Shown here piece by piece: positions 12,243-46,041 of a DNA stretch of 64,000 nt (within the stretch, counting starts at the first letter, position 1; each line of letters opens with the position of its first letter). Source of the stretch: Yuukianura sp. NJ FZ-2021 (lineage: Eukaryota). The stretch covers positions 1,178,001 to 1,242,000 of the forward strand of contig CM102285.1 in the NCBI GenBank assembly GCA_046563655.1, read 5' to 3'. The notes beneath the pieces are model-generated. The model searched no databases, was not told where the DNA came from, and was given only the letters and a program-made list of their open reading frames with translations. The position numbers were made by a program, and so were the translations under genes.

Positions 12243-12539
12243 TCAATTTTTCAAAACTTTAACATTTGGCGGCGTAAACTGCAGGATGACGTCGCTAAAT
12301 AGAACCACACAAAAATCAACGTGTTTAGATGCAAAACATTAGCAATTCACAAAAAACTTCGTTTTTGTTTAAAGAATTCTCACCTTGAAGTGCCTTATAA
12401 AGTTAGAACTCATTTGAGCCGTCATGACGCGACCACATTCAACACATTGTGCAGTAATGAGCTTTCTCTTCTGAACGTACTCAGTACTCAAAATTTGGAA
12501 AAAAAGTTGAAGAAAAAATTTTAGGTTGCAGTCCTCGGT
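12243..12539 (-). pseudogene. Second BED-finger cassette, apparently broken
   Basis: AQCVECGRVMTAQMSSNFIRHFK|GTGAG then SKH at ~12327. One extra base in a T run (~12500) shifts the frame, and the second acceptor reads TTGCA without G. Selector at 12613-12628. The frameshift could be a homopolymer error. Confidence 0.55.
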
Positions 12540-12719
12540 CTAGAATTAAGAGTTAAAATTTAAACGCATAAACAATGATTAGAAAGCTACCATTTACGAA
12601 ATGCATTCTTACACCTTGAGAACTTCACTACAACTTCAAATCTTTTCAACAATTTTTGGTTTTAAAACTTCAAAGTGTGTTAATTTTTGATAAACTGCAA
12701 TGAACTGAAACAGTTCTTC

Positions 12720-15700
12720 GATCAATGGCCATATTTATTGATGTGGCGTAAGAAATTTGAATGATGGTGAAACTTGTTACCGCATGTAGCACATTCATAC
12801 CCAGGCAATTTCCCACATTCAAACCTACAAAAGAAAAATAAAAAAAAAGTGCCCCAATATTTTTTGAAACCAAGCAAAAAATATTTAAATTACTTGATGT
12901 GACGATTCAAACTTCGTTTGTGTACATATGCTCGACCACAATTTTTTGGACATCGGAAAATACGACAGCCTTTATAAAAAAAAAAGAGAACTTAATCATA
13001 AAAATTTTAATTTGTGGACAAAAAAATTCCTGGAGAGGCTCACCACCAGGTTTTTATTTGACTAATTTTTTTGTTGCACTTTCGAATTTCGAAATCAAAT
13101 TTTGTAAAACACTATATTGTTGAAACCAATTATAAAAATTAACGACGTGAACATGTATTAGTCAAGTGGCGTTTTAAAGAAGATTTTCGGTGAAACTTGG
13201 ATCCGCATCGAGAACATTCATACCCCGGAGCGTTCCCGCACTCATATCTATGAAAAAACAACTTTTTTTTAAAACAAGTTTTTTTTTAATTCCATTACTA
13301 AAAAATGCAATTACTTCAAGTGGCGGCTCAAACTCCATTTGATTGCGTAACTTCGACCACAATTATTTGGACAACGAAACCCCACACCGCGATTATCTAT
13401 TTCAGTTTGGCCTAAAAAATAATCCAATTTCAGCTCCTCCGGAATTTAGACAAAAATTAAATACTAGAATAAAACAAAAGCATAATAAAACATTTTGTAA
13501 AACAAAAGGCTAGAGAGGCTCACCGCGTGCTAAAGTCATTGGAAAAAACGCAAAAATTAGAAAATCAGGAACACTATTAGAGACAATGTTTCAAGACAAA
13601 CAAATTTCAAAAAAAGGTTTGGTTTCCCGCCATGCAAATTTTTCTTTATTATAATAATATTGACATTATATTATAATGAATAAACTGGACCTATCGCAAA
13701 TGGTACACTACATGCTTTCTCTGTTTAGATGAACGACCACAGTTAGGGGTTGGGCAATAAAATCGATTGTTTTTTCGAATCGGATCCAAGGTCACTATGG
13801 CATGTATAAGTTTAAAATTTTTAGAAAGAAAAAAGACGATGCCTTGAGTCGACAGTTAAATCAACAAGATCTACTTCTACTCATGGCTATACAGACGTTT
13901 GAAAGGTTCACTGATTTCAAAAACTTCAAAAAACTGAAATGGACTGCACTGTTAACACACGTTAACTTAATCAGGTGAACTTAGGTTCTGTTATGTTAAC
14001 AAAAACTTAACAAAAAGTTAGCATTGTCCACCATGGTGGCTGCTTTGGTGGCGACTTAAGTTTCCACTCCAGTGTGTTTTGTAGCCACAGGGACAACGGT
14101 ATCTAGGCTCCTTGTTACACTCATGTCTGCATCAAATCAAAAACCAACAAATAACGTGACACCAATTTAAGTTATAAATTGATCACTTTTTTAAAAATGA
14201 CTTTTTAAAATCTTCAAATTAGCAAAAAGGTTCCTTTGGACAGAAGCAGGTCAATTCGTAAGCAGCTAATTCGTAAGGATTATGTTTATCACGTTTTTTC
14301 TTAATAAAGTTACGCTAATCAGAATAGGTTATGAAGCTTACAAACTGGGCTGGTTACGAATTACGTGGAACCACTTTGAACTAATGAAATATGCAAAAAA
14401 TTCACAACCTACCGAATATGCCACATGGCCTTGTCCTTCCTACTGTACGAACGACCACAGTTTGGATTAGGACAGTAAAAGCGCTTGTTTTTCAAAATCG
14501 GAACTAAGTAAGCTACGCGGTAAAGAAAAAAAGAGGACAGTTTAAACATAATTCAAGATTTCGAGTAAAGAAATAATAAGAAAGGAATATAGAAATAAGG
14601 AATAATAACAAGAATAAAGAATTTGTCTCTGGCCATGCATCACACCTTTGAAAAGTTCACCAATAGTTTAACAATGCAAAAACATCAAAAAAAAACTCGG
14701 AATAGAATTTGACAAATTTGTCGAATTTCGAAATATAAAATATGCAACAGAATTCCAAAATTTGGTATTTGGCGACAGCCAACAGTTGAAAAATTAAATC
14801 GCTGACAGCTTTTCAAATCCATCAGACAAAAACCTTGAATTTTTCTTTCACCAATTAACTATCTCCTGATTTTCAAAATTCAAAAGCAATTGAAAGTTAC
14901 TATTTACATTTCATTGCATAGCCTATTTTGAACATTTTTAAGTTTACTTAAATATAGATCCTGGGAAATGTCCAGTTCTCTTCAAATGTTGTTTAAAATT
15001 TCCTTTTTGATGAAACTTGTAGCCACATTCACAATGAAAGCTCGGATCTTTTTGGCACTCAACTCTAAAACAAATCGAAAACTTAATATTAAAAAAAATA
15101 TTTTAAAGTCGCATTAAATTGTAGCAAAATTTTCAAACGTCAAAATTTCAAGTGGAATTATTCTCACCGCAAATGGTTGGCCAAACCTCCTTTTGTGAAA
15201 TAACTCCGACCACAACCAACGGTAGGACAGCGAAACACATTCTCTAGTTACCCCATAAACTTAATTTAACAACTCTTTAAAAAAAAAGAAATGAGGATTT
15301 CCTTTGTAAAAAACAATTTCAAAACATGGCGACCTTGAGACCTAAGCTTTTTCTTTGTAAATGTAAAATTCGAAATTTTGGATTTCAAGATACAAATTAA
15401 ATTAGTTTTTTAATGCTCTCAAAATCAGTTTTTTAATGCAAGATTTATGGGAATTCAAGCTACAAATTACAATTCATTGCAAATTCGACATTCCCGTGGA
15501 CTTAACCTTAGAAAAATGGTGTATTTTTTGTAGGTGATGAACTAACGAAATTTTCCGATGTGTTTTGTAGCTACAGTGGTCACAACGGAATCGAGGCTCC
15601 TTGTTACACTCATGCCTAAATGAAAAATAAACTTTTTACAATTTTATATTATATTTTATATTATAATATTATATTATAATACTCAGCTGAACCTACCGCA

Positions 15701-18700
15701 AATGGTAGATCACAAGCTTTCTCTCTTTAGACGAACGTCCACATTTCGCAGTTGGGCAATAAAATCGATTGTTTTTCCAAATCGGTTCCAAGATAACTAT
15801 GATATGGATAAGATTTAAAATTTTTAGAGAAAAAACGACGATGTGTTGAGTCAGAATTTAAATCACCGGAATCAATTTCTGTCCATGCCTACTATGTAAA
15901 GGTTTGAAAAGTTCACCAAATTCACAAAAAGTCAAATGAACGCGTAAAAATTATTTATATTTATCCTCCATTTCCAACCAGAAAGTATTTTCTCAGAAGT
16001 CAAAATCAAAAATTCTTAGAACTACAATCACTTCTGGGCCCTTAAGATCAGTTTTTTAATGCAAGATTTGAAATTTTGGAATTCAAGCTACAAATTACAA
16101 TTCATTGCAAATTCGACATTCCCGTGGACTTAACCTTAGAAAAATGGTGTATTTTTTGTAGGTGATGAACTAACGAAACTTTCCAATGTGTTTTGTAGCT
16201 ACAGTGGCTACAACGAAATCGAGGCTCCTTGTTACAAACATGCCTAAATGAAACAAAAAATTCTCAATTTTACAGAAAAGTTCTGAAAACCAAAAGTCAC
16301 TAAACGTCAAAATTTCCATTAAATGAAACTAATGAACGGAACCTACCGCAAATGGTGGACTATCTCCCTTCTCACTTTAGCTGAACGACGACAGTTTGGA
16401 GTTGGACAATAATATCTGTTGTTTTTCAAAATTGGAACCAATGCCACTACATTAAAAATTTGAAAACAAAGAAACATTTCATGAGATTCAAAACTTCAAA
16501 TAAAAAGCAAAAATTCACAACTTTTTTTTTTAAATTCCAAATTAGGCAACAAAATTCGTCTTTCTTTTTAACTACTCGACATCAAAATTTAAAACAACTC
16601 AACTCAATTTACTCGACGTCAACTACTATGTCCACGACGTTTTGAGAAGTTCACAAAAGTCAAAACAATCGAAAAACTCGAAATGAAATTGCAAAATTCT
16701 TGAGAAATTCGCGATCGTTTCAAACAAGAAAAGTTACATAAAGAAAATTCACCCGAAGTCAGTCAACTCACATTCTCGTATAAAATACCAAAATTTTGGA
16801 TTTCAAGTTAAAAACTCCGTTTGCAAGTTGGACATTCACAGTGCACTCACTTAATCTAAAACTAACTGATGACGTCTTCGTAAATGTTGCACAAGATACC
16901 TCCTCCGATGTGTTTTGTAGCTACAGTGGCAACAATAAAAACGAGGCTCCTTGCTACATTCATGTCTAAATAGGTTAAAAAAGGAGAAGCCTGTTCATAA
17001 TTTTGCATAAAAGTTCCGAAAAAAATTCATAAAAACTTCGAAATTTCCAAGTTTACTAAAACGCAAACAATGAACCTACCGCAAATGGTAGATTAAGTGC
17101 TTCTTCTGTGTAAAAGAGCAACGACAGTTTGGAGTTGGACAACAATATCGGTTGTTTGTCAAAATCGGAACCAACGTCACTAAAAATTCAAACATTAAAA
17201 ACAAACTTTTACACAAGATTCAAAATTTTTAGAGAGAAAAAAAACGTTGGATTGAGTTAAAGTCTAAATCAGCGATGTCAATTCACTTCTGTCCATGACT
17301 ATAAAGAGGTTTGAAAAGCTCACCAAATTCAAGAAATTTAAAAAAGATTAAAAAAAAAAAACAAATTAACTTAGAAAAAAATTCTAAAGAATTTCAAACG
17401 GAAAGTTTTTTTTTAAGAAATCAAATAAAGAAATGTTTGAACTAAATTCAGTTCCTGGGTTTCAAAATAAGTTTCTTTAATGTAAAATTCAAAATTTTGA
17501 ATTCTAAACTACAAATTACATTTTAAAGAAAATTCCACATTCCGGTAGACATAGCCTAGGCAAAATGGTGTACTTTTTGTTGGTGTCGCTGAAACAATAT
17601 CTCCCAATGTGTTTTGTAGCTACAGTGACAACAATAGAATCGAGGCTCCTTGTTACATAGATGCCTAAATAAAAAAAAATAAAAAAATTTGCAAACAAGT
17701 TCTTAAAGAGCAAATTGTTCAAAATTTCCAATTTTACAGAAACTAAACCTGGACCTACCGCAAATGATAGGTCGTCTTCCTTCTATCTATCCACGAACGA
17801 GTACAGTTTGGAGTTGGACAATAAAATCGATTGTTTTCCAAAATCGGAACCATGGTTTCTAAATTGAAAATTTAAAAACAAAGAAACTGTTTTACGCGGG
17901 GTTCAAAATTTTAAACTAAAGCCATCAAACTCTGCTCCATGACCTTGTCAAAATTAAAATTTAAGAAACCTGGACCAGCGTCAACTGGATTTTGACAAAT
18001 TCAGAGTTTCTAAGAAGTAAAACAAAAGTTGTAAAACTTTCTAATTTTGAAAATTTAATTGGGTCGGACAATGCAAGAAGAATCGCTTCTAAAAGTCATC
18101 TGAAATCGATAGCCTTTTAACCAAAATAAAAATTTTGAATTCTAAACCACAAATTCATTTTGATTTAAAACCCAATGATCCGAAACTTCTACACACTAAT
18201 TTCTTCATTCAAAAATGCACTGACCACATGAAAAACATAATAAATGCCAAAAATTTACAACTTTTTTAAATTCCAAATTAGACTAAAAAATTCATCTTTT
18301 TTAAATTCGTGACGTGACGCAGTTTGGAGTTGGACAATGAAATCGGTTGTTTTTCAAAATCGGAACCAGCGTCATAGTATGCATAAGATTCAAAATTTTT
18401 AGAGAGAAAAAAAGATGCCTTGAGTCAAAATTTAAATCGGCGAGATCAATTTTTTTTTACCAATGGCAATACCGAGGCTTGAAAAGCTCACCAAATTAAA
18501 AAAAAACGCAATTGAACTTGCAAAAAATTTTTAGAGCAATTCGCGACTTCAAACGAGAATGTATTTTCTCAGAAATCAAAATAAAAAATCTTTGAATTAA
18601 AACACTTCCAGAATTTCAAAATGAGCTTTGTTTCAAAATGTAAAATCCGGATTTTTAGATTCCAAGGTACAAATGAGATTTTATTGCATATTCGCCAATC

Positions 18701-21700
18701 CTGTGAACTTAAGCTAAACAAAATGGTGTCGTTTTTGTAGGTGTTGAACTAACGAAACTCTCCAACGTGTTTTGTAGCTACACTGGCGACAATGGAAACG
18801 AGGCTCCTTGTTACATTCATGTCTAAATAAGTTAAAAAACAGAGCAGCCTGTTCATAATTTTTCATAAAAGTTCTGAAAAAAATTCATAAAAGCTTCGAA
18901 ATTTCCAAGTTTACTAAAACTCAAACAATGAACATACCGCAAATGGTAGCTTATATGCTTCCTTTGTGTGGAAGAACGACGACATTTTGGATTTGGACAA
19001 TGAAATCGGTTGTTTTTCAAAATCGGAACCAACGTCACTAAATTTAAAAAATTAAAATACAAACTTTTACACAAGATTCAAAATTTTTAGAGAAAAACAA
19101 TGATGGATTGAATCAAAATCTAAGTCAACGATGTCAACTCACTTCTGTCCATGGCTACACAGAGGTTTGAGAAGCTCACCAAATTCAAAAAATTTAAAAA
19201 AAAGATTAAAAAAAAAACAAAAAAAAATGAACTTGCAAAAAATTCTACAAGAATTCGCAGTTTCAAACGGGAAAGTTTTTTTTTCTAAGAAATCACATAA
19301 AAAAAAATGTTTGAACTACATTCAGGTCCAGCGTTTCAAAATCAGTTTCTTTAATGTAAAATTCAAAATTTTGAATTCGAAGCTAAACAAATTACATTTC
19401 ATTGCAAATTCGACATTCCCGTGGACATAGCCTAAGCAAAATGGTGTACTTTTTGTTGGTGTTGATGAAACCATGTCTCCCAATGTGTTTTGTAGCTACA
19501 GTGACAACAATAGAATCGAGGCTCCTTGTTACATTGATGCCTAAAAAAAAGAAAACTTTTCAAAAATTTGTAAACAAGTTCTTAAAGGGCAAATTGTTCA
19601 AAATTTCCAATTTTACAGAAACTAAAGCTTCACCTACCGCAAATGATAGACTAGTTTCCGTCTCTCTTTATACGAACGACTGCAGTTTGGAGTTGGACAA
19701 TAAAATCGACTGTTTTTCAAATTCGGAACCATGGTTTCTAAATTAAAAATTTAAAAACAAAGAAACTGTTTTACGCGGTACTCAAAATGTTAAACTAAGA
19801 AAGCAATTTAACTTTATTCCACGACCCATTTCAAAACTTAGTTATGGTAAGATAAAAATGAAAAAGCCTGGACCAGCTTGAACTGGATTTTGACAAATTC
19901 GCAGTTTCAAGAAGTAAAAGAAAACTATCTAATTTTGAAAATTTAGTTGAGTCGGACAATCCTTCAAGCAGAACCGCTTCTAAAAGTCATCCAAAATCGA
20001 CAGCCTTTTAACCAAAATAAACATTTTAAATTCTGAACCACAAATTCATTTTGATTTCAAACACAATGATCCGAAACTTCCACAAACTAATTTCTTCATT
20101 CAAAAAAGCACTGACCAGGACCACATGAAACCCATAATAAAGAAATACCAAAAATTTACAACTTTTTTAAACTCCAGATTAGACTAAGAAATTCCTCCTT
20201 TTTAAATTCGTGGCGTCAAAATGTAAAACAACTCAACTCAATTGAGTAATTCGTAGCGTTTCAAACAAGAAAAGTTCAACAAAAGATTATTTTATTTACA
20301 ACCACTTCTAGGGTATCAAAATTCACTTTTCTTCTACAAATTTCGAAATTAATTTCAAACTATACATTCCGGTTTTATTACAAATTGAACATTTAAGTCA
20401 GCCTCACTTAACCTAGAACGGACTCATGAACACTTCGATGGTGTCGAGCAAGATCGCTCTTACGATGAGTTTTGTAGCTACAGTGGCAACAGCGGAATCG
20501 AGGCTCCCTGTTACATTCGTGACTAAATAAGTAAAAAAAAAAGAACAAATTGATAATTTTGCAGAAAGGTTCTGACAAAAAATTCATAAAAACGTGGAAA
20601 TATCCAACCAAGTTGACTAAAACTCAAATAATGAACCTACCGCAAATGGTAGATTACATGCCTCCTATGTGTGAAAGAACGACGACAGTTTGGAGTTGGA
20701 CAACAAAATTGTTCGTTTTTCCAAATAGGAACCAAAGTTGCTAATGCAAAATTTAAGAAAAAAAACTGCTTCCAACGTTACGATATTCAAAATTTTAAAA
20801 TAAGAAAGCAATATCCTGTTCATGGCTTTGACCTTTGAAAAGTCCACTGTAAATTTGAAAATTCAAAAAACTTCGATAATCTTCAACTAAATTTTGAGAA
20901 ATTCCGTCTTCAGATAAGACGTGAAAAGTTTTTAAACTCAAAATTTAGTTGAAGGAAAATAGCTTTAAGTACAGCCGCTTCCAAAATTGCAAAATTCTTC
21001 TGAAATCGAAATTCTCGCTGAAATCCAAAATCCAAAATTTTGAATACTAAACAACAAACTCGCTTTATTTTAAACACATTGATCCGACAGTTCCAAGCTC
21101 ACTAATTTCTACGATTGAAAAAACAATACTGACTACTATCGAAATTCTACACTACAAAACTCGTCTTTTTTGAAATTCGTGATGTAGTGAAAGTTTTAAC
21201 CAAATTCACCATGCTGGGTGTATCGATGGCGATCGAAATGATATTTCCAATGTGTTTTGTAACCACAGTGACAACGGTGGCACGGGACCTTGTTACACTG
21301 ATACCTACATCAAAAGTCATAGCAAAAGTATTCTATCAAATTACTGTTCAAAATTTTAGAAAAAATAAAATTCAATTTTAGTTCAATTTTTACTCCAACC
21401 ATATAAACATACCGCACATGGTTGTAAAGACTCTTTTTCGCTAGATAAGATCGACTGCACTTTGGATTTGGACAATGAAATCGACCGTCTAAAAATTTCA
21501 AACAAATCTTAAGATATTTTTAGTTTTCAAAGTCTAACTGCAAAATGCAAAATTCGAAACTTGCAACTTTCTGAAAAAATCAATCATTTATGTCCATGGC
21601 TTCCTTTCAAACGTTCACCAAATTCAAAGATTGAAAAAACTTCAACAAGTAGGTAACAAGTTTAGAGAGTGTTAGAAATGTGTATAACATAATTCTAAAA

Positions 21701-22335
21701 TTTGTCATTTGCTTTAAAATTTAATACTGGGTTTGAATTTTCCAGACTACCATAAAACTTACAAAGTTAACCTTGGTGTTTAATGGAGGCCAGGCGCCAA
21801 TTTCCAGAGTATCAAAATTCACCCGAAATCGCTTGTCTTGTACAAAATTCGAAATGGATTACAAACAACACATTCCGTTTTTGGACATTCACAGTCACGC
21901 TCACTTAACCTAGAACGGATTGATGACGATTTCGTTGGTGTTGAAAAAGATCCCTTCTCCGATGTGTTTTGTAGCTGCAGTGGCAACAACGGAAACGAGG
22001 CTCCCTGTTACATTCATGTCTAAATAGGTTAAGAAAAGAGCAGCCTGTTCATAACTTTGCATAAAAGTTGTGAAAAAAATTCATACAAACTTCGAAATTT
22101 CCAAGTTTACTAAAACTCAAATAATGAACCTACCGCAAATGGTAGATTATATGCCTCTTATGTGTAGAAGAACGACGACAGTTGGGAGTTGGACAATAAA
22201 ATCGTTCTTTTCCCAAACAGGAACCAAAGTGGCTAATCGAAAATTAAAAAAAAAACTTGCTTCAAACGATATTCAAAATTTAAACTAAGAAAACAATATC
22301 CTGTTCATGGCTTTGACCTTTGAAGGGTTCACTTA
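12720..22335 (-). CDS. Distal block of two-exon C2HC+C2H2 ZF variable cassettes (~13 complete pairs plus 2 broken)
   Basis: Each unit: phase-1 acceptor, exon A (RFxCPxPxCxRSY...HLR), phase-2 intron, exon B (xECNKEPRFxCxxCxYKTH...H...H*). Approximate spans: 12720-12970, 13139-13410, 14018-14510, 14945-15243, 15470-15790, 16090-16450, 16850-17180, 17516-17860, 18660-19040, 19390-19738, 20408-20740, 21180-21490, 21905-22232. Broken: 13690-13800, 18320-18380. Confidence 0.85.
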
Positions 22336-22537
22336 TAAAAAATAAAAATTTTTTAAAACTTTAAACTTTCTTCAAGTAACTTTTTAGAAATTCGATTTGT
22401 CTAGAGCGACGGCATTTTTCCCTGGATCGTTTTCTGTTTTTCTTGGTATGTTGTATATATACCATTTGTGGTATATATTCGTTCATCAATCATATTTAAT
22501 TGTACTCAAAGATTTTTAAAAACAAACGAGAAAATTA

Positions 22538-22810
22538 TTAACTAGATGCGACATTAGGACCATTTTAAACAAAATTTTTGAAGCAAATGTTTTGTGACGT
22601 TTCTCCTGACAACTTACTCAATTTCATAAAAGTTAAGCCTGGTTCACACAAGATTTTATTTTATAGCAGATTATAAGTCCTCAAAAATTGGAATTCCTCG
22701 TGAGAACCGTGCTTAAACTTGAGGTGAAAGCGGTTTTTTACCTCTTTTAACCTCTTTTAATTTGCTTCAAAAATTTTGTTGAAAAACTGCCTAATGTCCA
22801 CTCTAGTTAA
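22538..22810. mobile_element. Small MITE-like element with ~50-bp imperfect terminal inverted repeats
   Basis: taactagatgcgacattagg...aaaatttttgaagcaaat at left is the imperfect reverse complement of atttgcttcaaaaattttg...cctaatgtccactctagtta at right. Confidence 0.55.
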
Positions 22811-23012
22811 AAGAAAAAATTAAAAAATCGTCCTGGTAACTCTATGATTGTACTACATCATGTAAAACCGAGGCAAATATTTAACTACTAAACTCGTTTA
22901 TTTTGTCACATGGAAAAAATGGATTATGATTTGAAATGAACTTAAATTAGATGGAAATCTTCTTACGTTTTCACAAAATGACAAATTCATTTCAGAAATT
23001 TAAGTTGTTTGA

Positions 23013-24076
23013 TTAGTTAGACGACTCGTCACTACTTTCTTCATCTTCTTCAGCATCTCGTTCCATAAAGAGCTCTCGCGGATAACCCATTTTTTTGAGC
23101 GTTTTCATTCCTGAAAGGGTTCCAAGTTCTACTCGATGAGCCCGAAGAATGTGATTAATAAAGTTCAGCTTTGATTCCCGTTTCGAATCACAAAAGGGGC
23201 AACGGAATCGATCGGCGTAATTTGAATGCTGAGTCTTGAAATGGTTTTGATAGGATCCAGTAGTGAAAGTTCGGAACTCACCATTGCTTTTTTTCTAAAA
23301 AATTACAAATATAAAATGTTAGGGAAACGAGTTTATTGCTTGTAAAGAAACACACTTACCGGACAAACACAACATACAGATTTTCCAGTTGCGATGTGAC
23401 GTTGAAAATCTACTCCTTTAGTACAGCCAAGAGTATAATTGAACGCTTTGTAGTCTGCCAAATTAGCAAACTGAGTTGGATTATTTTGTTGGATTTCAGG
23501 TTTCGGATCATCCTATTTAAAAATTACAAAAATTTAATCGTTTAGTATCTTGACTAAATTTTGAATAAGAAATTCTCATGTTTTCAAATGTTTATGAAAA
23601 TATACCATTCCTGGTATATAATCAAAATATACGAAATTTGGTATCTAAATCAAAACATGAAGTTGATGATCATTGTTACACACGCAATTACATATTTCTG
23701 TTTCTTACCTCAGAGTTAAAAATAGTCTCCCTCAATGCATGAAGAACCACATCTTTTAAATATCGGTGTGACGTATCATCCAAATCCAATTGCAGCTTCC
23801 TAATTTGTGCATCAACCTTGGCTTTCAACAAGTTGAATTCTTCCGCTTTCAAAAACTGGTGACGCTCCTTTTTCTTTGTTCCAGAATTGTCTTCTCGCAG
23901 TTTAGCTTCCATATTAATAATAGCTAAATTATCGGAAGAAGTTTGTTCCAAAGAGCCATCATCAAAACTACGCAAAATTCTATGCAACTTTGTGGCATCT
24001 TCGCATATTTTTGCCTTGTCAGGATTCGCTTGCAAAAAAGACACGAACTTCTTTTCTTCTTCGCGAAGTTTGTTTG
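23013..24076 (-). CDS. Three-exon C2H2 zinc-finger coding unit within a ~1.8-kb insertion (24076-23709, ~23512-23359, ~23294-23013)
   Basis: Canonical splice sites give one open frame: ANKLREEEKK...FNSE|DDPKPE...VCCVCP|KKSNGEFRTFTTGSYQNHFKTQH...FRCPFCDSKRESKLNFINHILRAH...*. Not similar to the flanking cassettes; no start codon seen. Confidence 0.65.
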
Positions 24077-25009
24077 CTGAAAACAAATTTAGCTTGTAAC
24101 AAATTTCAAAAGTTAAAACACATTCCAACGTTTATAAACATACACAATTGATTGTTTTTAAAATGCACCAAATGTGGTATATATTAAAGTATACTCGAAA
24201 GATTATATGTGAAAAGTTTCTAAATTCGAAATTTAATCCAACAAAATATCTTCTAAATTGTAAAATTCACGTGAAATCGATAATCTTTTTCCCCAAATCC
24301 AAAATTTTGAGTTCTATACCGCAGATTCATTTTTATTTCAGACGCATTGATCCGAAACTTCCACGTTCACTACTTTCTTCAATAAAACTAACGACTTTCT
24401 TTCAAAAGTTCACCAAATTCAAGCATTGAAAAAACCTTTAATAAACTTTCCACCAGTGTTGAGAGTTTTCTTTTAATCAAGAAACGTAAAGCACCCAGAT
24501 GGAATAAAACTAACTGTTTTAACTATAACTGCTTCTAAAATTTACAAATTTAACCGAAATCGGTAGAAAATCAACATCTGTGTTCTAAGAAAGTGCAAAG
24601 AAGGCGACGGCAGAGTCCATAATCGAAGTCATGGAAAAAGGAAAATCTTTATTTGTCCCAATAAAAACAATTCAGAAGTTCAACACCTCCAAGCTAATTT
24701 TTTTAAATTAAAAATCTACGGACGTGTATAACGTAATTCTAAAATTTGGCATATACAATGCAATACTGTTGAATTTTGCAGACTACCGTAAAACAAAACT
24801 TCGAGCATACGCCTGGGCGTTTATTCAAACTCAAAATTTTTACCCGGCGCGTATGAGAAAATGGCGTTTATTTCTAAGCCTGAGACGAATCCCTTGGGCT
24901 TTAATGGAGACCCTGATAGAAACCGGACACATATAAGAAGCTTTACGGTAACTATATGCCAAAGCTAACCTATGCTTTTTCGCTTTTTACACCATCTTAA
25001 TCTAATCTT

Positions 25010-34000: not shown

Positions 34001-37000
34001 TTAACACCAAAATATTTTTCAGAAAAGTGATTTGTGCCAATGGCCTCCAGGTTTGAGAAGTTCATCACTTCAAACAAAAAAAAACAGGAAAATTTGTTGC
34101 CGAAATACCAAAATTTATTAGAAATTTACTTTTTTTTAGTTCATGGCTAACTGTAACCTGCGTTTGAAAATTCCACTGAATATTATTTTAACTTTAACCT
34201 TAGGACAAAAAGTTGGATACACAAAAGTTAGTCTAAACTTGCTAACGTATCCTAATTGTCACCATGACAGCTGTATTCGTGGCGCTTCAAATTCTTTTCC
34301 CAGTGGGATTTGTAATCACAGTAGTCACACTTGTGGCGAGGTTCCTTGTTACATTCATACCTAACAAAAAACAAAACCCAACACTAGTACAACAACTTTT
34401 TACAACTTGACCTAATATAAAACTTTTTTTAAATTTAATAAAATCTTTCCCATAAAATCAAAATTGTTATTTTTTTATCCAATAATAGAAAATAGTAATG
34501 AACATACCGAATATGCCACAAAGCATGCTTTCTGTGCATGTACGAACGACCACAACTTGGATTTGGACAATAAAACCGATCGCTTTTATAGATCGGAACC
34601 AAGACCACTACAAAGACAAATTTAGAAAACACAAACACCGTGTTAGACGAAATTCACAATTTCAAACAAACAATTCAACTTCTTTCTGCTCATGACCTTT
34701 GAAAAGTTCACTAAATTAAAACTTTTAGAACAAAACTTAGAACAAGCTACTAAAACCTTGTACTAACGTTGTGCTTAAGGATCTTAGAACAAAACCACCA
34801 AAATTATTCTCAATTTTCCATCCTTAAATCCTAATGAGGTTGTGACTGTTTGTTAACCTATCAAAAATTAAGAAAGTCCACCATGGTGGGTGATTTTGTG
34901 GCGAGTTAAGTTTCGGATCCAGTGTGTTTTGTAGCCACAGTGACAACGGAATCTGGGCTCCTTGTTACATTCATGTCTACATCAAATCAAAAAAATTCTT
35001 TTCCAAAAATCTTTTAAACAAGATGAAATTTTTGGATTCTATTCCAACTACTTATATGAGCAGCCGTGGACCTACCGAACATGATTGATAAGGCTACATT
35101 TCCGAAGATACGAACGACCACAATTCGGATTTGGACAACAAAATCGGCTACCTAAAAATTTAGAATGGCCACACTAAACTAGTTCAAACTTAAAATTTAT
35201 ATAAGCATTACGTTAAAAAAAAAAACCAAACACCAGACTTCGAATGAATCCAAAAATTTACTTCGTGCCAAACGAGGACCATTGAGAAGTTCACTCAACT
35301 CTAAATTTTAAAATATGAAGTTCAAAATTTGGCAACCACAAATTCCCTTTTTGAAATTTATATTGTATTTATTATACATATTTTTATATCCACCATGGTC
35401 GAGGAAAAGAAAGTTCTAATTCAACAAGAGTTTCCACAATACCAAAATTTATCCAAAAACACTTTTCGGGTCTAAAATCCGAACTTTTGGATTCTAAAAC
35501 TCCAAATTCGGATTTACTTCACAGTATCACCTCAACTTAACCCAAAACTTGTTCCATGAACTTGCTTTTGATGAAGTGCTAAACACGCCTTCCGCTGAGT
35601 TTTGTAGTCACAGTAACAACAACAGTAGCACGGAGGCTCCTTGTTGCACTCATTCCTGCATCAAAAAACGAAACATTTCGTAATTCTGTCCAAAGTTACA
35701 AAAAAAAAGTTCAAAATTTCAAATACTACTCCAACTCAAAAAATCTACATACCGCAAATGGTAGGCAAGATCCTCTTTCAAATCAAATGAACGACCGCAG
35801 CTCGAAGTTACACAACAAAATCGAATGCCTAAAAATTTCACAAACAAAATTTGGAACACAAAATTTGTGACCATGGACCTTGACGTTTGAGAAGTTCACT
35901 TCAACTCACAAATTCACCAATTTTAAACCAAAAAAAAAGTTTAAACCAAAACGAAATGCCAAAATTTTTAGTACAATGAAATCTATTGGGAATTCCTAGG
36001 CAAAATTCGTATTTCGAAATTCGCGTCTTCGTAATGTTGACGCTGACGCTGGTGACGAACTAAATGTGATTTCCAATGTGTTTTGTAGCCACAAGTTCAG
36101 TGACAAGTTCAGTGTTCAGTGACAAGAGAGACGAGGCTCCTTGTTACATTCATACCTACATCATTCAAAATGTTGTTCAAAATTTTGAGTTTTCTAAGTC
36201 AAAATTCAAAATTTGTTTGTGGAAGGTCTGGACTTTACCGAAGATGACGAACTAGACTGCCCTTTACAATAAAAGCCCTACGGCAGTTGGGAACTGGACA
36301 ATGAAATCGCCGATCTAAAAAGCCAAAACGAGAGGAAGCAACTACCAAAATTCAAAATAAAATTTGGAACATAGAAATATGAAAAACAATTTCCAATGCC
36401 TGTCCATGACCATTGAGAAGTTCAGAAAGTTAAACACAACAGCAAAGATGAAAGGACAAGACGCAAACTTTAAACCAGTTTTTTTTTATGAGTAAACATT
36501 TAAGAACTCTAGTTTTAACAAAAATCTTTAACTTTGTACTCACGTTCACAATTTTAAAAAAGCCGAAAAGTCCTTCCCTGACTAACACAAACATGAATGA
36601 TAATTTTTAATTTTTATATTCCAAGGTTTTAAAATTAAATATAATTTTTTTTAAACTTCTCTAACTTGTAAATAAAACTTTTTGAAATTGGTGTTCATGT
36701 AGACTAACATTTAATAAAAAAAAAGTTTAAGTTCGCCCACCGTGGCGTCTGATTTGGTGGCTATTTAAATGTGATTTCCAATGCGTCTTGTACCCACAGT
36801 GACAAAAGTGACGAGGCTCCTTGTTACATTCATGGCTGCAACGAAATCTAATTTTAGAAGAATTTCCAAAAAGTTACAAATGATGGAAGAAAAAAACCTA
36901 CCGAAGATGAGAGAGAAGACTGCGTCTATGATTATAACAACGGCCACAGTTTGGAGTTGGACAATAAAACTGCTTCTTTCCTACAACCGAAAACGATGTA

Positions 37001-37725
37001 ACACACAATTTAAAAAAAAAACAGCTAAGACGACTTTTTTTTTCCTTTATGACCTTGAAAAGTTCACAAATTAAAAAAAACCAACAACCTTATTTAAGAA
37101 AAAATTTTTGAAATTTTCATTTTCTATAGAGAAATTTTCGTACTTCATGAATTTCAAATTTCACATTTTTCAAATTTCCTGGTGGCATCACGTGTCTTCA
37201 ACGCGTGTCAAAGTTCACAATCTTGAAGTAGAAAAAAAACGCAACCTACCGCATATGACGAATAAGACTCTTGCGCCAACCATAAGAACGGCCACAGTTT
37301 GGAGTCGGACAGACAAACCGATTGCCTTTTTACAAATTCAAAAAAAACTGAAATAATAAAAGTATAAACCGAAACTTCAAAAGCCATTCGAAAAATTTTC
37401 AAAAAACTTCCATTTCCATAATTTTGTAACAAAGTTTATTACATTCTGTCCATGGCATATGACCTTTGAGAAGTTCACAAATTGAAAAAAATAACAGAAA
37501 TCTCAAGATAGTGGCTTCGGAAAACGCAGAACCAACGTTAAAACGTTGTTTAAAAGTGGACTACGTTTTTTAGTCTCATTCCTTTCTTTAGAAAACCGCT
37601 GCAACAAAATGCAACGACGCCCAATGAAAGCACCTTGTCGATGACGTGTTAAATGGTTCATAGTGTAACTCTTATTGTAGCCACATCCACAAAAAGAACG
37701 AGGCTCCTTGTTACATTGATAGCTA
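25010..37725 (-). CDS. Central block of two-exon ZF variable cassettes (~19 pairs plus an orphan A and an orphan B exon)
   Basis: Same architecture. Approximate spans: 25010-25340, 25690-26084, 26420-26700, 26968-27278 (broken), 27630-27980, 28256-28540, 28750-29090, 29560-29880, 30165-30444, 30844-31139, 31637-31918, 32316-32611, 32790-33083, 33735-33984, 34240-34607, 34868-35151, 35537-35828, 36000-36314 (stop), 36727-36980. Orphan A 37249-37325; orphan B 37560-37722. Confidence 0.85.
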
Positions 37726-37840
37726 AGATCAAACACAACTTAATCAAAAACTTACATCAGATTTACATCAAAAACAAGTTACTCATTTTCGTAATTCAAA
37801 AACAGCTTTAAAAAAAATTCATTTTTTCACAACGTTTCGA

Positions 37841-40800
37841 CTAATCAGAATTTAGACATTGCAGAATGTGCAGCCCTCCTCAAGTGCTTTTCAAAATTTC
37901 CTTTGTGATAAGACGTGTAGTCACAATTGTTGCAACGAAAAGTCGGTGTTTTTCGACACTGAAATCTAAAACAAAGGTTTAAATGCTTAAATATTGTAAA
38001 TGTATTTTATGTATTGTAAAATACAAACACACATGTCATAACTGCGAAAACTTCGAAAAAAAAATCATCTCAATGTTCAACATTATTATCAAAAAACCTA
38101 AATAATTATAACAAAAAAATATACCGGAGGTGTGACCTAAGATATTTCATCCGCTTAAATGATCGGCCACAATTTGCATTTGGACAACAAAATTGGCTGC
38201 CTAAAACTCAGAAAAGAACGAAAATATTTAAAAAAAAAAAAGAGTTCACAACATAAATCAAAATCAAAAAATTTAAACACCCATGGCGTTTGAAAAGTTC
38301 ACTAACTTCCACAAACTTCAAAAAAGTCAAATTCCAACTTAAAACTCAAAATCCAAACTCCGAAGCGCTATAACATTTCTGAAAAATTTTCAAAAAATAA
38401 AATAAGAATGTGTTCTAATTTTCGAAATTCAAAACCCCTAAAAACAACGTTTCTTTTTTCATAACTTAAAGTATTTTGTTATGTTAGAAAGCGGAGTATG
38501 TCCAGTCTTCTTCACATGATGTCTCAAATTTCCTTTGTAATGATTCTTGTAGCCACACTCGCAATGAAAACTCGGTTCTTTCTGACACTCATATCTAAAA
38601 CCAGCCCAAAACTTAAGAAAATCCACTTACTTTTCATCAAATACAAACTTCGAAATTTCGATTTCAATCATCCTCACCGAAAATGGTTACTCAAACCGCT
38701 TTTTGTCCAGTAACTCCGATTACAGCCAACAGTCGGACACTGGAATCGAATCCCTGTTACCCCAAAAACATGTTTGTTTTTTCGTTTTTGAAAGAAAATG
38801 TTTCCAATTGAATTGTGAATGAAAACAATTTCCAAAACCTGGCGACCTTGAGAAAAACACGCAACGGAAAGTGGAAAGCTAATTTTAAAAAATTGAGACG
38901 ATGCCACTACAATTCTGAAAACTAAAATATTGAAATTTAGAACAGCCACGTCAATTTTTCTGTTGACTTTGGAAATAAATTTTTACCAAATTTTAATTCT
39001 CGCCGAATTCCAGCAAAGACTAACCACTCCAAAAACATTCAGGTAATGCAAAACAGTGTTTAAAAGCCAGCTGATGAAAAACCTTGCATTTTTCCTTGAT
39101 CGATTAACCATTTCCCGACTTTCAAAAGTCAAAAGCAATGAAACTAGCTATTTTTATTTCTTTACATATAGCTTATACTTTGTACATTTTTAAGTTTACT
39201 TAAATTTAGATCGTGAGAAATGTCCAGCTCTCTTCACATGTTGTTTGAAATTTCCTTTTTGATGAGTCTTGTAGCCACATTTGCAATGAAAGCTCGGTTC
39301 TTTTTGACACTCATATCTAAATCGAAAACTTAATATTTAAAAAATTTATTTTTATTCTACGCTAAATTATGTAAAAAATTTTAAACGTCAAGATTTTGGT
39401 TGGAATTATTCTCACCGCAAATGGTTGGCCAAACCTCCTTTTGTGAAATAACTCCGAGTACAACCAACAGTAGGGCAGTGGAACACATTCTCTAGTTACC
39501 ACAAAAACGTAATTTAAAAAACATGACTTCTTAACAAAATTTAAAACATGGCGACCGTGAGGAGAACATGCAATCACTAGTTGACTTCAGCATGAAAAAC
39601 TGGAAAATATAAAACTACTTTTACCAAGAATCTAAACTAAAATTAGGAAATTTCGAACTACTATCACATAGTCCATAACCGTAGAGCACTTCACCAAATT
39701 CATTTAGTGATTGGATCAAAATCTAACAATTTTTGGGTTTTGGGACTCGGAAAATGTCCACTTCTCCTCAAGTGTCTCTTAAAATTTCCTTTTTGATGGA
39801 ACTTATAACCACATCGGCAAATAAAACGTGGTTCTTTCTGGCACTCGTTTCTAAAACAAAACAAAACTTCACTTTCAAATAAAATCAGAGTGTTCAATAA
39901 AAAAATTTCGAATACAAAAATTAATGTTCCAAAATCGCAAACTTCAAAATTTCGAAAAACCCTGCCTCACCGAACATGGTTCCCCAAACCGCTTGATGTC
40001 CAGTACTTCCGGTTGCAATTTATATTAGGACAGTGGAACCGTTTCACTGTAGTTTTACGTCAAAAAATAATAATACGAGAAAGTATTTTTTTAAATACCA
40101 TGCAGTTTTTAAAAATGGCGACATTGAGGGGAACAATTTTGGACAAACAGCAAAATTTATTTCAAAAGTTACTTTTCAACTTTTTTTTTTTTCAATTGAT
40201 TTAGCACTACAGAGAAGAGGTCAACTGTGCCGAATGCCCTTTACTTTTCAAGTGCCTGATAAAATTTCCTTTTAGATGAAACTTGCAGCCACAGTTGCAG
40301 AAAAACGTCGGCTCTTTCTGACACTCAAATCTAAAACAGTAAAACCTCAATTGTCCAAACTTTTGAAACAAAAATCAGAAAACTTCAAAATTTTGATTTC
40401 AATTATCCTCACCGAATATGACTCCTCAAACCTTGTACTGTCCAGTAACGACGCTTACAACCAGCATTAGGACAAGGGAGTCGTGTACCTACGTGTATTT
40501 CACGAAAAAAAAGTTGAAAAACAGATATTTTAAAAAAAAAACATAAAAAAAACAATTTTTAATTTAAGAAAAGCGATTTTAGAGCAAGACGACTTTGAGG
40601 ATCGAGTAATGTCAATGTGTAGCAAAAATCTAATAAATCTAACTGGTGTTTTTGAAATTCGTGACGTTTCAACTTAAAATATAATAAATAATTTTATTTC
40701 ATATAAAAGTCAACGACTTTCACTATGGTAGTGTTTCATGTGGCGATTCAAATTGGACTTTCTGTGGCATTTATAACCACAGTGGCAATGGTAACCAGGC

Positions 40801-43800
40801 TGCTTGTTGCATTCATACCTAACGCATTCAAAAAAAAATTCCAAGTTCCTTCAAAAAAATTTGTAAAACAAAACCAAATTTTCACTTTGATCAAATTTGA
40901 TCCAGTAAAAAAAAATTGACGTACCGAATATGTTCAGTGAGATTCCCTTTTCGACGATAAGAACGTCCGCAAACTCGACAATAAAACCGATTGATGTTAA
41001 CATTCACTACATAAGTGCCAAAAATATTTCACAAACCCAAAATTTGCAGCAAATAACTTATTTTGATTTTTTTACTTTAACACATAGACCTTGAGAAGTT
41101 CACTAACATACCGAATTCAACAGAAACTGCAGCCTGCATATCAGTTCTCAAAATACAAATATAAAAAAAACTTTCTTAATGTATCTAAATCTATTTATAA
41201 TTTAGAAATTATGTCAAACACTCATTTTCCACGACGTTTCCCTTTTTTCATGAAGTATTGGTCAGAACTTGGAGAATGTCCGAGAGTTTTCAAGTGTTTT
41301 TTTAAACTTCCTTTTTGATAACTCTTGTAGCCACATTGGCAATGAAAACTCGGATCTTTTTGACACTCGTATCTAAAAGAGATAAACAAATATTTCATTT
41401 TGCACAATTTCCGAAAACAACAAAAATAAGAATAAATTTACAGTAAAAAATCAGAAAATTTCATTTCGATTTGAATTATGCTCACCGAAAATGGTTAATC
41501 AGCCCTGATTTTGACATGTACCAACGATAGCAACCAACATTAGGACAATGGAATCGATTCATCCCTATTTACGCCAACAAATTAAGTTCACAACTCAAGT
41601 TCATTACAAACTTTGAATTTGTAAAAATTAAATTTAAAAGGTTTAGAAAAAGGTTTTTTTTTTTAACATGGCGACTTTGAGCGGAGTTAGGTCAAAACCA
41701 AGAGCGATTTTATTACTTGAAATGAACTTAAAAAAAACTCTGAACAACGATTTCGCATTTTCAAAAAAGTGGAGAATGCCCACTAGTTTTCACGTGTTTG
41801 GTTAAGAATCTTTTTTGATAAAACTTGAAACCACATTCGCAATGAAAAGTAAGATCTTTCTGGCAGTGGCAGTAATACCTAAAAATAAATTTAGTTTCCC
41901 AGAATTTAGTACATAAAAAAGCTCAACTTCAAAATTTAGATGCGAATTATATCCTCACCACAAATGACGCCACAAACTTCCTACTGTGAAGTACCGACGA
42001 TTACAGCCAAAATTCGGACAATGATACTGAATCTCTATTTGCGAAAAAAAAAACCAAGAAGTTACATACGAGTATGTTTCTTTTTTTTTTAAATGAACAA
42101 AAAAAAATGTAAAAGTCGATTTTCACCGATGGCGAGTTTGAGGAAAGTAGAAAAAAAATTAAAAACTTAAAAAATACATAAAACTTTTTTAAAAAAAATT
42201 TGACGACTATTGAATTTCTTTTGCAATGTTCCTCTAGACCCGATATCTAAAATTAACCATTTCACACAATTGAAACGGAAACTAACATCTTTGTTCATAA
42301 TCTACCGCCTTTTTTTCGGGAAACGATACTAGACAGTGGAGAGTGCCCCATCCTCTGCAAATGTGATATTAAATTTCTTTTTCGGATAGTCTTGTAACCA
42401 CATTTGCAATGAAACTTCGGATCCTTTTGACACTCATTTCTAAAAACAAACGCAAACCATAAAGTTTTTAAAACATTTTTCGGAAAAAGACTAAAAATCT
42501 AAACCTTTTCATGTTTTGAAAACGAACCTACCGAAGATGGTCCGCGAGATGGCCTTTGTGACGATAAGAACGACCGCAATTTGGAGTTAGACAATAAAAC
42601 CGATTGTTTTTAAAAATCACTAAAACAACCAACAACAATCTAAAAAAATCCGAAACAAATCTTCGACCTTTGAGAAGTTCACTACAATTTAAAATTTTAA
42701 ATTTAATTCATCAACAATTTCCAAAACATAGATTCCAAAGGGAGACTTTTTTTTTTTAATAAAACGTTCAACAAAATTTCACACCAGGATTTCAAAAATT
42801 TGAGATGGCAAAAGCCTATTTTCCAGTATGTTTTCGTTTTGTCTTAAAAACTGACTGAGTAGGTGGAGAATGCCCAGTTTTTTGCAAATGCCTTTTTAAG
42901 TGTTCTTTTTGATAAAACCTGGAGCCACAAGCACAATGAAAACTGGGGTCTTTCTGGCAGTACAATCTAGAAGAAATTCATTTAGATTTTACTTCAAGAA
43001 ATTTAAAAAAAATCAAGTTCCAAATTTCGATTCCTCACCGCAAATGATTCCCCAAACCTCCTTTTGTCAAGTACCAACGGCTACAGCCAACATTGTGACA
43101 ACGGAATCGTGTCTCTGTTTGCCCCAAGCAAAAAAGTCAATAACGTCAAAAAAAATCAAAAAACGATGAAAGCCTAAGTTCTTTGAAAATGCGTTTAAAA
43201 AATTGTTAATTTTCAACAATGGCGACTTTGAGGAGAGTAATCTTGACAAATCAATAATTTACAAAAAATTTCATTCAAGTAAAAAATCGAAAATCTAAAC
43301 AAAATTGAAAACTTAAAACTTAAACAGCTTTGGCCTTTGCCAACTGAATAAAAAAGCAAACCTTTAAAAATCTAGATTCAAAGAAACTTCTTCAAATATT
43401 TAAGGAGTACATTTCTAGACCCGAATTTTACAATTCAAAATTTCAAAATTTTACACAATTCAAAACCGTTTTAAACGCACATTATGATTTCATACACTAC
43501 GACCTCTTTTTGAAAAGGCCACTAGACAGTGGGGAATGCCCTCTTCTCAGCAAATGTGATTTTAAATTTCCCTTGCGATGACTCTTGTAGCCACATTTGC
43601 AATGAAACCTCGGAGCTTTTTGACATTCATCTCTGTAAAATGCAAAACTCCAAATTTCAAAAACATTTTTTTCAGAAAATGAACTCAAAAACTAAAACTG
43701 TTCAAAATTTCAAAAACAACCTACCGAAGATGGTTCGAGAGATGATTTTTGCGACCATAAGAACGACCACAGTTTGGAGTGGGGCAATAAAACCGCTTCG

Positions 43801-44455
43801 TTTTAAAAATCCCTAAAATACCAACAAGAATCTCACAAAACCAAAATTTTGAAACATCTTTGACGCTTGAGAAGTTCACTACATTTCAAATTCAAAAAAA
43901 GTTAAACGACAATTTTCCAGATTCTAGAGAAACTTTTTAAAACATTAAAGGAACTTTCTCCCTCACAGTGCCTTTTTCTAGACCCCAACTTGCTAAAAAC
44001 ATATTCTCGGTTTTAATCCAAAATTTTGAAAAATTGACAAAATTCAAATTTTAAGTTGTTTTTTTTTACCGCCTTTTTGAACAAGTTACGTTAGATAGGG
44101 GAGAGTGGCCACTCCTGTTCAAATGTGCTTTTAAATTTCCTTTTCGATGACTCTTGAAACCACATTGGCAATAAAACTTCGGATCTTTTTGACAATTATC
44201 TCTAAAAACGAAATGAATATTTCAGAAAGATGAACTAGATTTTTTAAAAATAATTTTGAACTCTTTATAATTTTTGACTATTCTCACCGAATATGGTTCC
44301 TCAAACCTCCTCGTGTCCGGTAACGCCGTTTACAACCAAAATTTGGACAACGATACCGACATTCTAAACCACCAAAAAAAAATCCTTTCGCATCGATTTT
44401 TCTTTTTTCGTTGTACAAAAAAAATCGAGGCAAAAAAATGACGACTTTGAGTGGA
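37841..44455 (-). CDS. Proximal block of two-exon ZF variable cassettes (~12 pairs, mostly ECQK.P.F.C.CGYK...KGN...H....GH type)
   Basis: Approximate spans: 37841-38200, 38464-38753, 39200-39490, 39700-40047, 40200-40487, 40690-41008, 41222-41563, 41760-42033, 42302-42620, 42844-43112, 43497-43812, 44066-44362. Checked example: exons 43812-43725 and 43632-43497 give GIFKTKRFYCPTPNCGRSYGRKNHLSNHLR|DECQKAPRFHCKCGYKSHRKGNLKSHLLRRGH...*. Confidence 0.85.
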
Positions 44456-45159
44456 AACACAAATCAGAAAAGTTAAACAAATTTTTCTTCAGGCACAGAA
44501 ATATCCAACTTTTACGAATTCTACAAAATTTCTTCCGATTCAGAACTTGGTCTTTATTTAAAAAAAAACTATTTAAAAGTTACTAAAAATTATATTCAGC
44601 ACATAAGCACAAGTGTAAAGCTTTCTATTACCGGGATTAATCAAATTCTGTTCTCGCACCAAAAACTGTAATTTCAGAACCGTCGGCTCAAGAAAAAATG
44701 TTCACTGTATCTGTATAACCCATTCCCTGCTTCCGGCTCTCCAGAATTCGAAACCACGTTTGCTTCCAGTATTTCTTCTAAAACAGAAATCTTAGTTTAA
44801 AGAAAATTCACCACAGACGACAATGAGAGAGATCTTCAGAAAAATGAAAGGTAAAATAAAAAAAAGAACGGCCGAAATATGGCAAAAGTAAAAATTAATT
44901 CAAAACGATTTTGAAAAAAAAAACTGAAGAAAATTTGTCAACTATAACGTTGAAAATTGCAAAAATTCATAAAAATTAAACAAGAAATCCACACACACAA
45001 ACACATACAAAACGACAGATATTGCTTTAGTAAATCAAGGTTAGTAGCTTCCAAAATAATAAAAATCAACTGAAAAAATATGACTTGATTGTCCAAAACT
45101 GACTCTGGTTTCTAATCTAAGCAAAATCAAACCCCGTAACCTAACCATGACCTAACACA

Positions 45160-45910: not shown

Positions 45911-46041
45911 CTTAATCAACACAAATACCCGCTTGTGACCAACAAAATATGGCTAACATTTCAGTTCAAGCGAGTAACACATTATACCTATTCAATGTTT
46001 TTGTTAATTCATGACTGCTAGCAGAGATAAAGCAGAGCAGT

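Follow-up and report, generated by a model that had tools for sequence, protein, structure and literature searches.

Candidate dock/selector RNA pairing at the alternative 3′ cassettes of a lola-like gene in Yuukianura sp. NJ FZ-2021, with a wobble-type excess that probably stems mostly from local substitution bias

The docking site and the selector sequences of Dscam1 exon 6 were reportedly described by Graveley in 2005. In the clustered protocadherins, promoters are chosen by oriented CTCF sites via DNA looping. Elements comparable with both systems were found in a 64,000-nucleotide (nt) stretch of Yuukianura sp. NJ FZ-2021 (assembly GCA_046563655.1, contig CM102285.1, positions 1,178,001 to 1,242,000), which is referred to below as the window and numbered from its first letter. 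Its minus strand carries what is, judging from the predicted domains and exons, a lola-like BTB zinc-finger gene. An earlier note on this DNA had listed recurrent variants of a short sequence and read their substitutions as favouring G·U wobble pairs in the transcribed strand. We consider it likely that these variants are the selectors of a dock/selector RNA pairing in the lola-like gene and that the wobble excess is mostly local bias. As in Dscam1 exon 6, a conserved dock beside a constitutive exon is accompanied by dozens of variable exons, each with its own upstream selector; the selectors are complementary to overlapping parts of the dock, and just one could pair at a time. Unlike Dscam1, a receptor gene with internal cassette exons, the present gene has 3′-terminal two-exon cassettes of a transcription factor, its dock is placed 33 nt past the donor, and there is no visible involvement of a repressor or of a constitutive acceptor further downstream. 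The layout also resembles that of the protocadherins: each variable unit has its own oriented element, and the shared site has one that points the opposite way. In the present gene, however, the elements are placed next to splice sites, and the way they tile and bulge is compatible with RNA helices.

Competing RNA pairings have been described for the 3′ variable region of Drosophila PGRP-LC (PMC6191721). According to the relevant part of that account, which of the alternative 3′ exon sets is used depends on pairings within introns, as is predicted here, but PGRP-LC has three major isoforms, whereas the present locus has about 50 cassettes and a single dock. In the hymenopteran lola, as presented in the relevant passages of PMC5000498, many alternative 3′ coding ends, each comprising one or two exons, are joined to a hub exon; Nasonia has over 180 of them, and for Apis 58 have been annotated. 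The authors of those passages did not see a similar expansion outside Hymenoptera. The present locus likewise has a hub exon branching to many alternative 3′ ends; its cassettes are spaced about 0.6-0.7 kb apart against a median of 1.4 kb given there for Nasonia, and those passages mention no pairing element. Many alternative 3′ ends are also a feature of the Drosophila BTB genes mod(mdg4) and lola, and RNA pairing promotes joining in the trans-splicing of the mite sDscam, as far as the pertinent sections of PMC13490949 and PMC9258826 describe them. For mod(mdg4), the authors of the former state in the section concerned that pairing is not the main determinant; the complementarity found here is, unlike that of mod(mdg4), extensive. 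Full-text literature searches, which did not cover subscription journals, returned no paper on a dock or selectors in lola.

The docking site is a single 33-nt element in the intron beside the constitutive hub exon, and its exact 11-mer core occurs once on the minus strand (46685-46695). An Rfam search around the dock gave no match. Metagenome contigs were scanned with a 23-nt dock pattern, by which only exact 23-nt matches could be found; eight loci were returned, two of which (L006 and L007) have the same sequence, leaving seven distinct other loci. The dock was invariant over 33 nt in eight aligned sequences, 23 nt being imposed by the search pattern and 10 nt not. In the metagenome loci, it always lies equally far past GAAG/GTAAG (the slash marks the splice site), and the intron on either side varies. 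In locus L006, the dock is preceded by a BTB exon and followed by zinc-finger cassettes, and 10 kb of sequence contain 17 selectors versus none in the control orientation, the duplex energies of these selectors ranging from -21 to -41 kcal/mol. Just downstream of the dock (46590-46630, minus strand), copies of ATAACG were noted, which are also present in L001-L006 and L008; several columns of these copies are invariant in 7/7 aligned loci, the remaining intron being variable. These copies may represent a protein-binding intronic element beside the dock.

Selectors were sought by motif, by alignment and by predicted duplex energy. The 11-mer GAGAGGTTCAC, searched in the window with up to two mismatches, gave 37 matches versus 10.96 expected, a number reached in 0/100 shuffles, and 31 of the 37 are located on the plus strand, from 12151 to 43879. 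All variants listed in the earlier note were recovered on that strand, with no exact copy on the minus strand between 12000 and 46650; the plus/minus counts were 10/0 for GAGAAGTTCAC, 6/0 for GAAAAGTTCAC, 2/0 for GAAAGGTTCAC, 2/0 for GAGAGGCTCAC, 2/0 for GAAAAGCTCAC and 4/0 for GACTTTGAG. The reported change of CATGGC to CATGAC is also frequent (16/4 and 13/3 in the same interval). The range given for the variants, 13033..44453, does contain selectors, but the array is wider and extends from 46276 down to 12146. A strand-neutral identity alignment to the dock (+1/-1, threshold 10) yielded 48 matches with a score of at least 10 in the pairing orientation versus four in the control orientation; the matches at 24904 and 24671, which are followed by no cassette, and those at 7472 and 140, which are outside the array, were left out of the counts.

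The predicted energies gave the same orientation. In 45 units defined solely by exon A, the most stable duplex formed by the preceding 260 nt had a median energy of -31.2 kcal/mol; in 225 shuffles of the same upstream regions, the median was -18.6 and the 5th percentile -25.1 kcal/mol. Duplexes of -27 kcal/mol or below precede 36/45 of these units and weaker ones the other nine, in keeping with a selector before each variable exon. When 10000-46600 was scanned, the sense strand had 43 energy peaks of -28 kcal/mol or lower and the other strand one. Early duplex scans (41-nt dock against 60-nt windows) were discarded and their lists replaced by the stricter scans and the strand-neutral alignment, because random background reached -8 to -17 kcal/mol.

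The position of the selectors is regular, with a median of 78 nt (interquartile range 60-99) between the selector 3′ end and the predicted acceptor. They cover different parts of the dock: 9/44 end at or before column 26, and 21/44 start at or after column 15, the left-class selectors being built on CATGGCGAC..TTGAG. Of 946 selector pairs, 884 share more than six dock columns and 62 share six or fewer; most selectors thus overlap on the dock, so that one would pair at a time. Bulges and spacers of 1 to 4 nt are placed differently among selectors. No trend is claimed for duplex energy against distance from the dock (Spearman -0.24, p = 0.11). Selector 1 forms a conserved island within an intron of 50% mean column identity. 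Its imperfections relative to the dock are kept in L004, L005, L006 and L008 (GAAC for GACC; CTTAAG for CTTGAG in 3/5 sequences), which suggests that the pairing strength of individual selectors may itself be conserved.

Each cassette consists of exon A (a C2HC finger ending at a donor), a short intron and exon B (a C2H2 finger and a stop codon). About 50 cassettes lie downstream of the hub exon, from about 45.9 kb down to 12.1 kb on the minus strand, where pattern matches were obtained for 45 exons A and about 50 exons B; the gene thus has many alternative C2HC + C2H2 ends. The Pfam C2H2-type matches in the cassettes were weak and below the cut-off. In a tree of 44 units, from whose building the selectors were left out, the median terminal branch was 0.42, and the noncoding tree length was 30 over the 44 units; the units are old and neutral sites between them are saturated, and the selectors are nevertheless retained.

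Several deviations from the regular array were observed. It is broken at 22400-25000, where minus-strand open reading frames (ORFs) without a clear selector are present, namely one at 23688-24131 (147 amino acids, no Pfam match) and one at 23013-23294 (93 amino acids, weak zf-Di19). At 11888-12539 (minus strand), the selectors 12613 and 12146 precede single ORFs in place of the usual two-exon cassette; these ORFs encode a different finger (C.ECGR...) with a weak zf-BED match (E=0.0033). Past the last selector, minus-strand ORFs at 10097-10396 and 11094-11546 (99 and 150 amino acids) have a common DIG.GVM-like stretch and no Pfam match. Two sister cassettes at 17826-19895 (minus strand), with exon A at 19705 and 17826, have best duplexes within 260 nt of only -17.5 and -20.7 kcal/mol.

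The N-terminal BTB domain was found split over two constant exons of the minus strand (Pfam E-values in Table 1). Of 24 homologues matched by the BTB half of the query, 20 are named longitudinals lacking, with query coverage of just 21-34% and with bric-a-brac and broad names also present; PDB sequence searches with both halves returned generic BTB proteins and were no help on orthology. RNA runs carrying 4-17% of sampled words were compared with 28201-48200. The intron 46864-46953, upstream of the hub exon, is joined in two RNA contigs and the intron 47830-47917 in one, both with CT..AC ends on the plus strand. In none of the contigs compared with this stretch is the hub donor linked to a cassette, which weighs against the mechanism proposed below. 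A 33-nt RNA piece at 40528-40560 has loose ends and is not interpretable.

In the proposed mechanism, the dock, which begins 33 nt past the final constant donor, would pair with one of about 50 selectors, and the paired selector, at the median 78 nt upstream, would mark the acceptor of the chosen alternative 3′ cassette. Such pairing would loop out up to 35 kb of intron and would therefore bring the donor and the chosen acceptor about as close to each other as in a short intron. The analysis shows the anatomy, the orientation, the predicted energies, the conservation and the substitution counts; that dock and selectors pair in vivo, that this pairing steers splicing, and that it would act in cis or in trans, is what we infer. 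If functional, the pairing would explain how a single hub exon can be combined with any of dozens to hundreds of lola DNA-binding domains, and docking/selector pairing would extend beyond Dscam-type receptor genes to a Dscam-like choice in a transcription factor. More tentatively, and with somewhat more doubt than confidence, we propose that the frozen 33-nt dock lets an expanded lola gene choose one of 50+ DNA-binding cassettes per transcript, possibly in trans, and that imperfections (wobbles, C·A mismatches and bulges) set cassette usage.

The wobble-type substitutions were counted in two sets. In the exon-defined set, 40/45 units entered the strand-neutral local alignment, the five with a score under 10 being dropped, and changes from the dock amounted to G>A 54/241, T>C 8/213, C>T 14/204 and A>G 4/219, with 52 transversions. 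The excess of wobble-type changes claimed by the earlier note is therefore present in the raw counts for G>A versus C>T (Fisher p = 4.7e-6) and not for T>C versus A>G (p = 0.25). The G>A changes are clustered, columns 23 and 25 of GAGAGG accounting for 14 and 23 of the 54, and column 18 (GACTTTGAG, left class) accounts for 9/14 C>T changes. In the 44-selector set, columns 8-33 contain 52 G·U-type and 15 A·C-type cells; 39/52 of the former are in dock G columns 23 and 25, the G columns 21 and 26 having just one each. At C column 18, a C·A mismatch occurs in 8/35 selectors. T>C and A>G cells of this set number five versus three, and transitions make up 47/57 of the non-dock bases at G columns, 5/8 at T, 12/27 at C and 3/8 at A columns.

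When minimum changes were placed on the unit tree (columns 8-33), G<->A accounted for 20, T<->C for 4, C<->T for 8 and A<->G for 3 changes, and transversions for 11 at G/T columns and 19 at C/A columns. The resulting 24 wobble-type versus 11 A·C-type independent events differ from an even split (p = 0.02), with p = 0.15 versus the neutral-rate share of 0.585 and p = 0.57 versus the equilibrium share of 0.684. Among 11 sister pairs, changes between Watson-Crick (WC) and other states were WC<->G·U 5, WC<->A·C 3 and WC<->other 5. The 25 selectors of other species showed G>A 19/135, T>C 5/93, C>T 7/129 and A>G 10/93, that is, 24/228 G·U-type versus 17/222 A·C-type changes (p = 0.33), with A>G above T>C.

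The noncoding parts of the sense strand have a composition of A 0.31, C 0.11, G 0.17 and T 0.41. An unrestricted 12-rate model, fitted on 347 noncoding columns of the paralogue alignment, gave neutral sense-strand rates of 1.22 for C>T versus 0.85 for G>A and 0.44 for A>G versus 0.33 for T>C, about 1.4-fold in each case; C>U is the fastest change, and U, with a base frequency of 0.40 against 0.11 for C, is the commonest base, 3.7 times C at equilibrium. Since the C>U and A>G rates exceed their mirror rates, the changes that keep G·U pairing are the neutrally favoured ones, as they are on this U- and G-rich transcribed strand, and the raw wobble excess is therefore no evidence for RNA-level selection. 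It must be judged against the strand-asymmetric spectrum of the intron itself and against independent events. A mutation-selection likelihood was computed on the rooted unit tree, with G·U, A·C and all other oppositions each given a cost of their own. Under the asymmetric spectrum, the costs were 2.97 (G·U), 3.25 (A·C) and 3.68 (other) for columns 8-33 and 2.88, 3.59 and 4.33 for core columns 19-31, and equality of G·U and A·C gave p = 0.50 and p = 0.26, respectively. With branches scaled to 0.3, no test was significant; in terms of occupancy, the expected G·U share was 0.684 versus 52/67 observed (p = 0.064), and a bootstrap over columns included zero under both the asymmetric and the strand-symmetrised spectrum. 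The claim of an excess beyond the local strand-asymmetric bias did not survive column resampling, the sister pairs or the other species. Nor did comparison with the opposite strand sustain it: the G·U share of pairs in minimum-energy duplexes was 9.9% for sense and 8.2% for mirror duplexes, a ratio of 1.2, and composition-matched shuffles gave 18.3% and 14.8%, again with a ratio of 1.2.

The earlier note had held that selection for pairing shapes the substitutions, G·U being kept and A·C removed, so that the asymmetry would be an RNA-level signature. This is possible but seems to us doubtful, and a number of results do speak for it and so weigh against attribution to local bias. On the tree, the difference between G·U and A·C survives a strand-symmetric correction (p = 0.027 for columns 8-33 and 0.019 for the core). 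The 52 versus 15 cells depart from the rate-based share of 0.585 with p = 0.0008 if cells are independent, and a model with G·U as the sole tolerated class beats its mirror by 2.0 log-likelihood units in columns 8-33 and 6.0 in the core. The non-dock bases are mostly transitions at G/T columns and not at C/A columns, and at the level of events the transition:transversion ratio is 24:11 at the former versus 11:19 at the latter (Fisher p = 0.013). The sense duplex is stabler than the mirror in 31/45 units (mean difference -2.44 kcal/mol, Wilcoxon p = 0.001). Selectors rich in wobble pairs, such as 45546-45576 (-37.4), 29399-29434 (-36.4) and 17289-17326 (-30.3 kcal/mol), escape identity scoring, so that G·U is undercounted in the 44-selector set; the paralogue alignments behind the neutral yardstick are saturated, and part of the U-richness of the intron may be selected; the wobble test has 26 columns only, with very uneven constraint among them, a caveat in favour of the note. 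Against these points stand the results under the asymmetric spectrum, the concentration of the G·U-type cells in two columns, the C·A mismatch at column 18, the five T>C versus three A>G cells, the sister pairs and other species, and the identical sense/mirror ratio in real and shuffled duplexes. The G>A-rich pattern appears to come mostly from the local sense-strand spectrum acting at two or three pyrimidine-tolerant dock G positions, where G·U tolerance probably contributes. A better tolerance of G·U than of A·C cannot be demonstrated with the data of the window, and the wobble statistic gives no independent support for RNA pairing.

The note further placed the constraint on RNA duplex formation in the minus-strand transcript and not on a DNA-binding site. 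This is probably right, given the orientation, splice-site geometry, tiling, predicted energies and dock invariance, although the wobble pattern is not what argues for it. Oriented DNA sites for a protein, such as a looping or promoter-choice factor, with one convergent site at the hub, one per cassette and no RNA pairing, would fit the strict orientation bias (48 versus 4) too, and the wobble test is compatible with a DNA motif having a few R/Y-degenerate positions. Such sites are very improbable, since selectors cover different, partly non-overlapping stretches of the dock (the 62/946 pairs sharing six columns or fewer), carry bulges or spacers at varying places and form predicted duplexes reaching -30 to -39 kcal/mol, and since the elements are placed 33 nt past the donor and, at the median, 78 nt ahead of acceptors. 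That selectors were merely inherited with the duplicated unit, dock complementarity being incidental, is strongly disfavoured: tandem duplication of cassettes would lead one to expect a shared upstream element, but the selectors persist where neutral sites are saturated, the dock is their reverse complement and is invariant in eight loci, and the same layout appears again in L006. Pairing in trans, with cassettes transcribed from their own promoters and the selector bringing each transcript to the hub transcript for trans-splicing, has a better but still small chance of being correct. The pairing geometry found here would be equally workable in trans, and the parts of PMC9258826 and PMC13490949 concerned report trans-splicing of lola and mod(mdg4) in flies and pairing-promoted trans-splicing of sDscam in mites; on the other side, no evidence for cassette promoters was encountered, none having been looked for, the cassettes without exception follow the dock on one strand, as would be expected of simple cis splicing, and complementary pairing in Drosophila mod(mdg4) was tested and not supported, according to the same part of PMC13490949. 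The positions of all features are listed in Table 1.

Table 1. Features of the lola-like gene and its putative docking site and selectors, in window coordinates (score, strand-neutral identity alignment to the dock; energy, predicted duplex in kcal/mol)
Feature	Position	Strand	Score	Energy	Evidence or remark
Constant exon, first half of BTB domain	47918..48119	-			Pfam BTB E=2.6e-12
Constant exon ORF, second half of BTB + linker	47084..47829	-			Pfam BTB E=2.7e-8; exon 3′ end not mapped
Last constant (hub) exon; donor GAAG/GTAAGC, final exon base 46746	46746..46863	-			sequence; donor context kept in 8 sequences
Docking site, RNA UAUGCCAUGGCGACCUUGAGAGGUUCACCACGU, begins 33 nt past donor	46680..46712	-			sequence, duplex energies, conservation
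Array of selectors + alternative 3′ cassettes	12146..46276	-			finger patterns, duplex energies, identity alignment
Selector 1, left part of dock; sense AGTTCGCCATGGCA	46259..46276	-	14		conserved island in 5 loci
Wobble-rich selector, before second cassette	45546..45576	-		-37.4	energy only; largely G·U pairs; missed by identity alignment
Selector	44438..44454	-	11		
Selector	43862..43882	-	13.5	-31.1	
Selector, left class (GACTTTGAG)	43219..43232	-	12		
Selector	42664..42685	-	14.5	-30.9	
Selector, left class	42129..42142	-	10		
Selector, left class	41667..41684	-	14	-30.1	
Selector	41087..41103	-	15	-32.9	
Selector, left class	40115..40131	-	13		
Selector, left class	39547..39561	-	13		
Selector, left class	38840..38853	-	14	-38.5	
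Selector	38281..38302	-	12.5	-33.6	
Selector	37450..37478	-	14	-39.0	
Selector	37051..37067	-	13		
Selector	36404..36424	-	11.5		
Selector	35887..35899	-	11		
Selector	35277..35294	-	12.5	-35.2	
Selector	34694..34711	-	10.5		
Selector	34035..34068	-	13	-37.0	
Selector	33178..33192	-	13	-34.4	
Selector	31248..31260	-	11		
Selector	30557..30583	-	14	-33.3	
Selector	29992..30009	-	12.5		
Selector without recognised exon A after it	29399..29434	-		-36.4	energy only
Selector	29178..29191	-	10	-32.9	
Selector	28641..28652	-	10		
Selector	28039..28067	-	12	-34.8	
Selector with exact core GAGAGGTTCAC	27378..27389	-			motif search + identity alignment
Selector	26795..26810	-	14	-34.8	
Selector	26187..26205	-	11.5		
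Selector	25489..25514	-	12.5	-38.1	
Selector	22306..22332	-	12		
Selector	21594..21620	-	13.5	-38.2	
Selector	20821..20847	-	10		
Selector (GAGAAGCTCAC)	19167..19181	-	11	-36.8	
Selector (GAAAAGCTCAC)	18466..18493	-	10.5		followed by degenerate exon A
Selector (GAAAAGCTCAC)	17289..17326	-		-30.3	three wobble-type changes in 11-mer
Selector	16642..16654	-	11	-34.8	
Selector	15904..15918	-	11		
Selector, left class	15325..15340	-	16	-32.0	
Selector	14644..14662	-	11.5	-35.0	
Selector	13899..13911	-	11		
Selector (GAGAGGCTCAC)	13510..13527	-	12		
Selector (GAGAGGCTCAC)	13029..13046	-	14	-34.1	start of the range in the earlier note
Selector before cassette with different finger type	12613..12631	-	13		
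Final selector in window	12146..12164	-	13		scan window 12131-12180 at -36.5

A zinc finger resembling exon B of the cassettes was detected at 50572-50700 on the minus strand (Pfam zf-H2C2_5, E=1.4e-6), outside the array and ahead of the BTB exons. The region 51000-64000 is occupied by a macro tandem repeat of about 3.15 kb, and identical 26-nt arrays of 9.1 copies each are located at 53121-53357, 56268-56504 and 59412-59648.

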